From Escherichia coli (GTDB taxonomy: Bacteria; Pseudomonadota; Gammaproteobacteria; Enterobacterales; Enterobacteriaceae), in the NCBI RefSeq assembly GCF_013122565.1, contig NZ_CP053258.1: 64,000 nucleotides of DNA. One strand, 5' to 3'. The translations under genes were made by a program, and so were the position numbers. Shown here in pieces: positions 8,450 through 10,884 of the stretch (position 1 is the first letter of the stretch; each line of letters starts with the position of its first letter). The notes under the pieces were generated by a model that was given only the letters and a program-made list of their open reading frames with translations, ran no database searches and had not been told where the DNA came from.

Positions 8450-10114
8450 TTAAAATGTTTCCCAGTTCTCCTCGCTATCTGCCACGGCCATTTTACGCGG
8501 CGTAGCTGGCGTCACGGTTTTTACTACAGCCGATGTTTCACGCTGCTGTTGCTGCTGTTGCTGAATTCGGAACACTGCCACTGCTTCGGTCAGGCGACTG
8601 GCCTGCTCTTCCAGCGCGGCGGCGGCGGCGGCAGATTCTTCCACCAGCGCGGCGTTCTGTTGAGTTACCCGGTCCATCTCAGCAACCGCTAAGCCAACCT
8701 GATCGATACCACGGCTCTGCTCATCAGAAGCAGAAGCTATTTCGCCCATAATGTCCGTCACGCGGGTCACGGCACTGACAATCTCCGCCATTGTTTCCCC
8801 GGCGCTTTCGACCAGCGTAGAGCCAACATCCACTTTCCCCACCGAGTCTTCAATCAGGCTTTTAATTTCACGAGCCGCCTGGGCGCTGCGCTGGGCCAGA
8901 TTACGCACTTCTCCCGCGACCACCGCAAAACCGCGCCCTTGCTCACCCGCACGCGCAGCCTCAACCGCGGCGTTCAAAGCCAGAATATTGGTCTGGAAGG
9001 CAATGCCGTCAATTACGCTGATAATATCGGCGATTTTCTGCGAACTGGTGGAGATATCGCGCATAGTCTGCACCACGTTATCTACCACTTTGCCGCCGCG
9101 TTGCGCCGTTTCAGAAGCACTTAATGCCAGATGGCTGGCCTGGCGCGCATTCTCGGCGTTCTGTTTCACCGTTGCGGTCAGTTGCTCCATGCTGGCTGCA
9201 GTCTCTTCCAGCGAAGCGGCCTGTTGCTCGGTGCGCGAAGAGAGATCGTTATTGCCGGTAGCGATTTCGCTGGCACCGCTATAGATGGCATTGGCCCCGT
9301 TGCGCACATCACCGACGGTACGCATCAGCTCTCCCTGCATATGGCGCAAACTCTCAGCCAGTTGCCCCATCTCATTAGAGCCATCCACCTCAATCGGTTT
9401 CACCAGATCGCCGCTTGCAATATGACGAATGCTGTCAATCAGGCGATTCATTGGCGCTACCAACGAGGCTTTAATACCGAACCAGACGGCGAAGATGACC
9501 GCCAGTACGGCGATCATCACGCCCACCAGAATCCACATCGCCTGGCTGTAGGAGGCATGGTTATCGCTGACGGCGATATCATAGAGCCGATCGTTTTGCT
9601 CCATGTAAGCCACATACTGCTTCTCGAAACCGTCCTGATATCCCTGGGTCGGCTGATCAAAGAACTCGTTGATTTTGCCTGCACCTAACAGTTGGATCAG
9701 CTCCGCCAGCGCATTGTGATAAATATCGTAATTACGTTTGATCTCTGCCGCTGCGGCGGTGCTCTGACGCGGGTCACGCGGCAACGCTTCGTAATCCGCC
9801 CAGTTTTTTTCCGCCTGTTTCAGCGAAATACTGGCACTCTGCATCAGCTCAGCAACGGTTGAACCGCTACCAATATTGTTCTGATCCATCATGTAGCGGA
9901 TACCCGCGCGGTTGAGGGTGTTACGCGTCTGCAACAACGCGACCCAGCTGCCATTCAGCGTGGATTGCTGCTGGCGAATGGTTTGTAAAACAGTGAAATT
10001 TTCTTTGTCATTCTTTAAGGCATTAAAGAACAGACCGCCTGATGTCAGTTGTAAAAGGCCAAAAACGGCCAAAACCAGCAGTAAGCTGGTCACGATCTTG
10101 ATACGTTTTAACAT
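8450..10114 (-). CDS. tsr: Methyl-accepting chemotaxis protein I (serine chemoreceptor)
   Basis: 554 aa; HAMP, methyl-accepting signalling domain, C-terminal NWETF pentapeptide; recognised as Tsr. Confidence 0.95.
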
Positions 10115-10341: not shown

Positions 10342-10884
10342 ATGTTAAACCGTGACTTCGATCATCTCTCAACGCTATTACATCTCTTTTTTGAACGTGA
10401 GGATATTTGCCAAAAGCTTAATATTATTGACCAAAACAATATCACCGGTTGGGAAGTGTGGTTCCAGGTAGAGTTTGCTAATATGCTCTGCTCAACAGAC
10501 CATGAATGGTGGCGTGAACAAGCACTTTCCTGTGATATGCGCAAAAAACCTGAGCGCCCGACACTACGCACAGATTTCTTACTACGTAAAAAAGGCTGGG
10601 CACAAGATAGCTATATCGCGCTTGAAATAAAACAAAACAGAGACGCGACCAGTTGTGTTAAAAATATGATCGCAGACTTAGAAAAAAGCGCAAAAATAAA
10701 ACGTTCCGAACTCGATTTACGCAGTTTCTGGACCTTGGGTATCACCCCTATGATAGACAGGGAAAGGCTGGACTCTCTCATCGATTGCTATTTAGATGAG
10801 AAATTTTATCTTACTAAATCTCGTAAAAAACACGTTTTACTTAAAGAAATAAATAACACACCATATTGCTATATTGTTATTTAA
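10342..10884 (+). CDS. Hypothetical 180-aa protein in an AT-rich islet (possible PD-(D/E)xK-like fold)
   Basis: ORF with Shine-Dalgarno (aagaaagga) about 8 nt upstream; flanks strongly AT-rich; I do not recall this gene between tsr and btsT in K-12; motif TDFLL...IALEIK is compatible with a nuclease-like core (weak). Confidence 0.55.
   Translation: MLNRDFDHLSTLLHLFFEREDICQKLNIIDQNNITGWEVWFQVEFANMLCSTDHEWWREQALSCDMRKKPERPTLRTDFLLRKKGWAQDSYIALEIKQNRDATSCVKNMIADLEKSAKIKRSELDLRSFWTLGITPMIDRERLDSLIDCYLDEKFYLTKSRKKHVLLKEINNTPYCYIVI

Follow-up and report, generated by a model that had tools for sequence, protein, structure and literature searches.

A nine-base-pair in-frame tandem repeat with one to four copies at the start of the C-terminal tether of the Escherichia coli serine chemoreceptor Tsr

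Introduction

Does the short glutamine run at the beginning of the C-terminal linker of the E. coli serine chemoreceptor Tsr differ in length between strains and, if so, by what steps does it change and what could those changes mean for the adaptation enzymes that are tethered there? The Tsr gene, its tether and its terminal pentapeptide are textbook subjects, and polymorphic tandem repeats that keep the reading frame are known from other coding sequences. Tsr is also among the best-quantified signalling proteins, and the length of its tether feeds into physical models of adaptation through the tethered-particle motion of CheR.

The pentapeptide NWETF binds CheR (~2 µM) and phosphorylated CheB at the end of an unstructured arm of ~30-35 residues, and both methylation and chemotaxis suffer when the pentapeptide is removed or the linker truncated (PMC7390727, PMC8609364, PMC10561060). 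In K-12, the NWETF of Tsr and Tar enhances both methylation and demethylation (PMC7390727, PMC8609364). Work on the tethers of Tar and Tsr (Bartelli & Hazelbauer 2011; Li & Hazelbauer 2006, both as cited in PMC7390727 and PMC10561060) deals with the same gene and the same element as the present study, and the glutamine tract forms the first part of the ~30-35-residue arm. In the literature, however, the Tsr tether is a fixed 30-residue K-12 sequence, whereas a natural series of 30, 33, 36 and 39 residues is described here. No paper on a Gln-tract or VNTR polymorphism of tsr was found in the literature searched, where the sole match to the linker sequence was the K-12 form in PMC10561060.

Results

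The tract was analysed in a window of 64,000 nucleotides, which is the whole stretch of E. coli DNA under study, where it lies within an open reading frame of 554 codons plus a stop on the minus strand (8450..10114). A first-pass annotation had assigned this frame to tsr, coding for the serine chemoreceptor or methyl-accepting chemotaxis protein I, and the assignment was borne out by a full-length match to the NCBIfam Tsr equivalog NF011615 (1222.5 bits against a cut-off of 947, with residues 1-554 on profile positions 1-554) and by the Pfam domain order of TarH (PF02203, 1-176), HAMP (PF00672, 217-263) and MCPsignal (PF00015, 327-484). The gene lies between lgoT and btsT, as at the E. coli tsr locus, and the 8-kb region is collinear (98.9%, best match) with E. 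coli chromosomes annotated btsT / tsr / lgoT / yjiA. The last 251 nt of tsr have a best match of 98.8% among complete E. coli genomes, and tsr is annotated in 5,345 genomes of the species. From its 99% identity to the characterised E. coli Tsr, the protein of the window would be expected to sense serine.

Translation places the C-terminal linker, or tether, at I517-E549 (33 residues; 8468..8566, minus strand), bounded by the tether point R516 and the pentapeptide NWETF (8453..8467, minus strand). The latter, located by translation and ortholog alignment, fits the pattern xZxxZ, and in the alignment of 31 orthologs its N, W, E and T were invariant and its F was present in at least 90%. Residues 2-8 of the linker, the first seven after I517, are the glutamine tract Q518-Q524 (8543..8563, minus strand). 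The plus strand reads ctgctgttgctgctgttgctg at 8543-8563, and the reverse complement, CAG CAA CAG CAG CAA CAG CAG, is translated as QQQQQQQ. Both the coordinates and this reading had been given exactly by the first-pass annotation, which also had the run at the start of the Tsr C-terminal linker, ahead of NWETF, in agreement with the translation. The tract directly follows the last helix residues F515-R516-I517 (...AVAVFRI), at the point where the tether that ends in NWETF begins.

According to the sequence itself, Tandem Repeats Finder (TRF) and the alignment with K-12, the tract is made of two copies of CAGCAACAG and a trailing CAG. TRF reported positions 8542-8563 as a repeat of period 9 with 2.4 copies, 100% matches and a score of 44, and the same tract reached 78% matches and a score of 30 at period 3. 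With base 8542 included, the seven-glutamine (Q7) tract gives a 13-nt self-match of period 9. Mononucleotide shuffles predict 0.18 exact 9-nt tandem pairs in 64 kb, and the tract gives 5 registers; it is real and beyond chance expectation, though short. No open frame of the window with 100 aa or more has another Gln run of five or more residues. One other homo-amino-acid run of at least five residues occurs in a real gene of the window, an Ala6 run that is also in tsr.

Tract lengths across the species were read with probes carrying tracts of varied length between 45-nt K-12 flanks, which were searched against 5,426 complete E. coli genomes, and gap-free full-length matches alone were counted by means of strict E-value limits. 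The locus was detected in 5,342 of the 5,426 genomes searched, and 5,338 of these have one of four lengths, Q4, Q7, Q10 or Q13. The allele of the window, Q7 (21 nt), is the predominant one and was found in 4,056 genomes (76%), including O157:H7, CFT073, Nissle 1917, IAI1, ATCC 8739 and ST131, followed by the K-12 form Q4 (12 nt) in 1,211 genomes (23%), including K-12 MG1655, C600, DH5a, MC4100 and an ATCC 11775 assembly. Q10 (30 nt) was present in 68 genomes, such as HS, LF82 and NRG 857C, and Q13 (39 nt) in 3 genomes (RM14723, A13 and Z1323HEC0355). The Q4, Q7, Q10 and Q13 proteins have 551, 554, 557 and 560 aa, all full-length and in frame, with tethers of 30, 33, 36 and 39 aa, respectively. 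All four variants are already public in protein databases, and the PDB mixes alleles, with 6S1K carrying Q4 and the 3ZX6 chimera Q7.

The first-pass annotation had described the tract as a triplet repeat that could vary in length between strains. The predicted variation is found in the four lengths seen among the 5,338 genomes, and the alignment of tsr alleles that had been proposed as a check likewise gave different lengths rather than a single length in all strains. The triplet description, on the other hand, did not hold. The period-3 fit stops at 78%, and no gap-free match to Q5, Q6 or Q8 was obtained in the 5,426 genomes, where these probes gave Q7 or Q4 with a 3-nt gap only, although the probes could miss a single-codon variant whose flanks had a rare haplotype with at least four SNPs relative to them. 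A pure (CAG)n trinucleotide repeat is excluded by these two results, and the unit is instead the 9-bp CAGCAACAG. When the window is aligned with K-12 and five further strains, K-12 proves to be shorter by exactly 9 nt, or one unit, inside the tract; its tract is CAGCAACAG-CAG (Q4), while that of the window, O157 and the others is CAGCAACAG-CAGCAACAG-CAG (Q7). The 24 fully extracted alleles fit the form (CAGCAACAG)n+CAG, with the exception of one CAG>CAT change (His) in strain 06-00048. A probe with a single glutamine (Q1) had no match at E<=1e-20 in the 5,426 genomes, a cut-off that gapped half-length matches would fail. What varies is the copy number, one to four, of a 9-bp in-frame tandem repeat, and the protein changes in steps of three residues. 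E. coli Tsr proteins of 553, 555 and 570 aa in the protein collection, considered as candidates for Q6 or Q8, all proved to be Q7 with indels elsewhere in the protein.

Low-complexity stretches raise the question of whether the lengths could come from sequencing or assembly errors. Short repeats can be mis-assembled, and some singleton Tsr variants elsewhere in the protein (poly-Ala runs of 5 or 7) may be errors of this sort. Against this, the 5,338 finished genomes come from many laboratories and platforms and show just four discrete lengths, the tract of 12-39 nt is far below read length, and the length classes co-vary with flanking haplotypes. Separate assemblies of one strain also agree (four of HS, two of LF82, and the K-12 derivatives), and on the concordance of these replicate assemblies we rejected an artefactual origin, to which we would attach practically no probability.

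The distribution of the lengths was examined on a tree of the single gene tsr, built from 24 alleles chosen for diversity and with the tract removed. The length classes are interspersed (polyphyletic) on this tree, and Fitch parsimony requires at least 11 changes. Alleles of different length can be very close in the rest of the gene: of 1,644 sites, 2 distinguish ZJ3920 (Q4) from PKF4 (Q7), and the Q13 alleles are 5 differences away from Q10 alleles. One SNP haplotype of ±60 nt around the tract bears both Q4 (CT01) and Q10 (HS, KSC64), another spanning -150/+93 nt bears both Q10 and Q13, Q4 lies on at least three distinct downstream haplotypes, and the gene downstream of Q10 is either lgoT (HS) or that of a TRAP transporter (LF82). 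Since flanking haplotypes are shared by alleles of different length, the copy number appears to have changed repeatedly. The data thus support several independent copy-number changes, and intragenic recombination could account for part of the scatter.

Within lineages the length is constant. The listed K-12 derivatives are all Q4, the four HS assemblies and the two of LF82 are Q10, and the sampled O157:H7 genomes are Q7, which means that the locus is stable on laboratory and epidemic time scales. This stability and the preservation of the frame by a 9-bp unit led us to reject a phase-variable contingency locus. The broader proposal to which such a locus belongs is that copy number is selected by lineage or niche for the kinetics of serine adaptation, or that fast switching provides heterogeneity. 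Some observations would fit it, since independent copy-number changes recur on different haplotypes, Q10 and Q13 cluster on an LF82-like (TRAP-transporter) background, and the per-unit effect modelled below is not negligible. Nevertheless, an in-frame unit permits no on/off switching, a low mutation rate is expected from only one to four copies, and the K-12 derivatives, the HS and LF82 assemblies and the sampled O157:H7 genomes show no variation within lineages. We consider adaptive tuning or contingency in this sense quite improbable.

As for the mechanism of change, the most likely one is that the copy number (n=1-4) shifts by whole units through replication slippage or unequal exchange between direct repeats. 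The substrate for either process would be the 13-nt period-9 match of Q7, which is longer in Q10 and Q13. Q4 keeps a match of 4 nt only (CAGC...CAGC) and, judging from its sequence, may be a relatively stable end state that has been reached repeatedly by deletion. Slippage by a single codon would be blocked by the CAA interruptions, as suggested by the missing Q5, Q6 and Q8.

To place the E. coli series among its relatives, the tract was compared with that of orthologs from other genera. The best 120 matches of the protein homolog search were E. coli-level variants only, and the comparison draws on ~30 Enterobacterales genomes among the matches listed, a haphazard sample in which Salmonella, E. 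albertii and E. fergusonii do not appear by name. In these ~30 listed genomes the linkers have 32-43 aa, are unrelated in sequence after FRI and all end in NWETF. Among the listed matches from close genera, the linker has an interrupted start, FRIQQ[D/E/S/A]QQ[K/R], with never more than two consecutive Gln, in proteins of 553-555 aa. Linkers of 32-34 aa were found in the listed Leclercia, Enterobacter, Citrobacter, Kluyvera, Superficieibacter and a divergent Escherichia, and the linker has exactly 33 aa in 7 of the ~13 close relatives among the matches listed (Leclercia, two Enterobacter species, a Citrobacter, Kluyvera, Superficieibacter and Enterobacter sp. Ag1). In the divergent Escherichia (88.8% nucleotide identity; 554 aa), the linker starts I-QQAQQRQ-HE, with the codons CAG CAA GCG CAA CAG CGT CAG, and this Q-rich segment of seven residues is collinear with the Q7 of the window. 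Within this sample of ~30 genomes, the perfect repeat is confined to E. coli, and Q7 would represent the ancestral length. The 30-residue tether of K-12 is the shortest seen among the sampled alleles and orthologs, and Q10 (36 aa) and Q13 (39 aa) fall inside the natural range of linkers.

These comparisons bear on whether the length matters at all. Under pure neutrality, tethers of 30-39 residues would be tolerated with no measurable change in chemotaxis, and the allele frequencies would reflect mutation bias together with drift or hitch-hiking. Tsr of K-12, with its Q4 tract, has been fully functional over decades of laboratory work, lineages keep their alleles fixed and give no hint of rapid switching, and the ortholog linkers among the matches listed are unconserved in their 32-43 residues. 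Linkers of Pectobacterium receptors similarly range over 29-39 aa and have no conserved sequence (bioRxiv 10.1101/2024.03.07.583918). However, the close genera among the matches listed cluster at 33 aa and 76% of E. coli do likewise, a hint of weak stabilising selection on length. Strict neutrality is also weakened by a measurement on Tar, in which a change of 5 residues (34 to 29) already causes a measurable shift of the fitted CheR distribution (PMC10561060). We would put pure neutrality at somewhat less than an even chance.

The same study provides the quantitative basis for estimating what one repeat unit could do. With Tar tethers of 22, 29, 34 and 46 aa, the CheR peak moves linearly by 0.128 ± 0.048 nm per residue, or by 0.233 ± 0.100 nm per residue in an alternative fit, and in K-12 Tsr the tether point is taken to be R516 and the tether to start at I517 and measure 30 aa (PMC10561060). 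We applied the equation of that paper, with the distances of the Tsr sites, to 30, 33, 36 and 39 residues. In this extrapolation, which is one-dimensional and fitted to Tar-only cells, the CheR density modelled at a receptor's own sites falls by ~25% per added unit, and by ~60% with the alternative fit. Each unit would add three residues to the arm that bears NWETF, and a longer arm would, by extrapolation from Tar, modestly relocate tethered CheR (and CheB-P) relative to the methylation sites and quantitatively alter adaptation kinetics. In mixed wild-type arrays, assistance neighbourhoods buffer the effects of tether length, as argued in the discussion of PMC10561060. It is plausible, as the first-pass annotation had suggested, that the length alleles alter CheR/CheB tethering.

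Whether the predicted effect is a decrease or an increase turns on the conformation of the tract, coil or helix. The glutamine run could prolong the C-terminal helix, more so when it is longer, instead of adding flexible chain, and each unit would then shift the anchor by ~0.45 nm toward the HAMP domain and the membrane, while the exit point would rotate; with the anchor farther from the methylation sites, the model gives these sites a higher CheR density, not a lower one. AlphaFold2 (AF2) models give some reason to consider this. With Q7, the helix ends at 512 and a separate low-confidence helix spans 519-527 (pLDDT ~44, and below 50 from residue 521), while with Q13 a continuous helix of residues 435-534 runs through the tract at a pLDDT of 56-62. 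Poly-Gln that follows a stable helix also tends to gain helicity with length. Yet both models have low pLDDT at the tract, the one for Q13 is of poor quality as a whole (mean pLDDT 69, with a broken hairpin), the experimentally derived array model 8C5V in the PDB ends at residue 516, and charged or Ala residues interrupt the motif in the orthologs among the matches listed. In addition, the entire C-terminal segment of Tar is described as unstructured from EPR (work cited in PMC7390727 and PMC10561060). Helix extension appears unlikely to us, although less so than adaptive tuning.

Discussion

In the glutamine tract of Tsr, a known gene has a small coding repeat polymorphism of an ordinary kind. 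Taking the evidence together, we think that it is probably best described as a unit-step repeat at the junction of helix and tether which would shift CheR modestly, is nearly neutral or weakly constrained, and does not act as a switch.

Comparison with better known repeat systems helps to delimit this description. The in-frame coding VNTRs used in MLVA typing share with the tsr repeat the exact head-to-tail units of a length divisible by three, the polymorphism between strains and the recurrent change. They differ from it in that the tsr repeat has one to four copies, is stable within lineages and has low discriminatory power, and in that it encodes a Gln run in the tether of a signalling protein rather than a repeat of a surface protein. 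A slippage-prone repeat in a coding region is also what the contingency loci of Haemophilus, Neisseria and Campylobacter have in common with tsr, but the tsr unit is a multiple of three and always keeps the frame, and its short tract shows no switching within lineages. Eukaryotic CAG/poly-Gln tracts likewise consist of glutamines coded by CAG and CAA, in which CAA is expected to suppress slippage by single triplets; in contrast to them, the tsr tract changes in 9-bp steps only, is far below the lengths associated with aggregation or instability, and belongs to the tether of a bacterial receptor.

A more specific proposal would be that the series of 30, 33, 36 and 39 residues is under selection and sets the speed and precision of serine adaptation by lineage, for example in the Q10 and Q13 strains of LF82-like background. 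We regard this as doubtful, though perhaps a little less so than the tuning or switching discussed above. If it were true, the K-12 tether would be atypically short and models of Tsr adaptation would have been calibrated on a minority allele.

The K-12 reference is a minority form and the shortest one, with most E. coli and related genera at 33 residues, and past residue 517 both the numbering of Tsr and the length of its tether diverge between K-12 and most isolates. At the same time, a natural four-step series of tethers that differ by added glutamines alone offers a testable natural experiment for tethered-enzyme models of receptor adaptation.

Natural variation in Tsr

Variation in the serine chemoreceptor gene tsr of E. 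coli extends beyond the number of Gln codons in its tract (Q518-Q524, window 8543-8563, minus strand). Across the 24 alleles examined, the sole point substitution within the tract was found in strain 06-00048, in which the final codon is CAT and the run therefore reads QQQQQQH. Different natural Tsr alleles have also been used among the solved or modelled structures of the receptor (PDB 3ZX6 versus 6S1K and 8C5V). The 3ZX6 chimera carries seven Gln residues and ends ...ADSGENWETF, whereas 6S1K carries the four Gln residues of K-12, so that numbering past residue 517 is shifted by 3 between these two entries.

A second homopolymeric run, AAAAAA (Ala495-Ala500, window 8616-8632, minus strand), sits in the C-terminal methylation helix of Tsr and is encoded by GCG/GCC triplets (period 3, 5.7 copies, 100% in TRF). 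Two protein variants, P0087 and P0114, have 5 or 7 Ala at this run; such variants are rare in the database, and because they are singletons they may represent errors or deleterious register shifts. The same helix is shortened by about 11 residues in E. coli 3PT (NZ_CM137004.1), whose tsr contains a 33-nt in-frame deletion flanked by CGCCGCGCTGG direct repeats (columns 47-79 of the tsr alignment, equivalent to approximately 8622-8654 of the window). Two further variants, P0069 and P0071, are altered inside the HAMP domain, one by a 16-residue tandem duplication (x2) and the other by one additional His, and each of them comes from one contig only.

Genomic surroundings of tsr and other repeats

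Genes flanking tsr varied by strain among the 23 E. coli genomes whose loci were compared (L007-L029): the downstream side is occupied by lgoT-lgoR in some strains and by a TRAP transporter operon in others, and hpaR lies upstream of tsr in part of them. Tsr, LgoT and LgoR of one ATCC 11775 assembly are identical to the K-12 proteins. In the window, tsr and btsT flank a 180-aa ORF (10342-10884, plus strand). Its sole family match was a sub-threshold one, to the Pfam TnsA-like endonuclease N-terminal family (E 0.068), and annotations of E. coli genomes list it as a 'hypothetical protein'. The 8-kb region that includes this ORF was covered to at least 80% in 2,511 of the 5,426 complete genomes searched.

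Larger coding repeats are found in a 720-aa ORF (34909-37071, plus strand) that is rich in AT and whose sequence resembles pentapeptide repeats. Its two in-frame tandem repeats, both much larger than the tsr tract, are a 6-bp unit present in 6.3 copies and encoding KDKDKDKDKD (35271-35308), and a 9-bp unit present in 21 copies and encoding three-residue units, ATP/ATS/...IPETPQ (36417-36606). For repeat variation from strain to strain, this ORF is probably a better candidate than the tsr tract.
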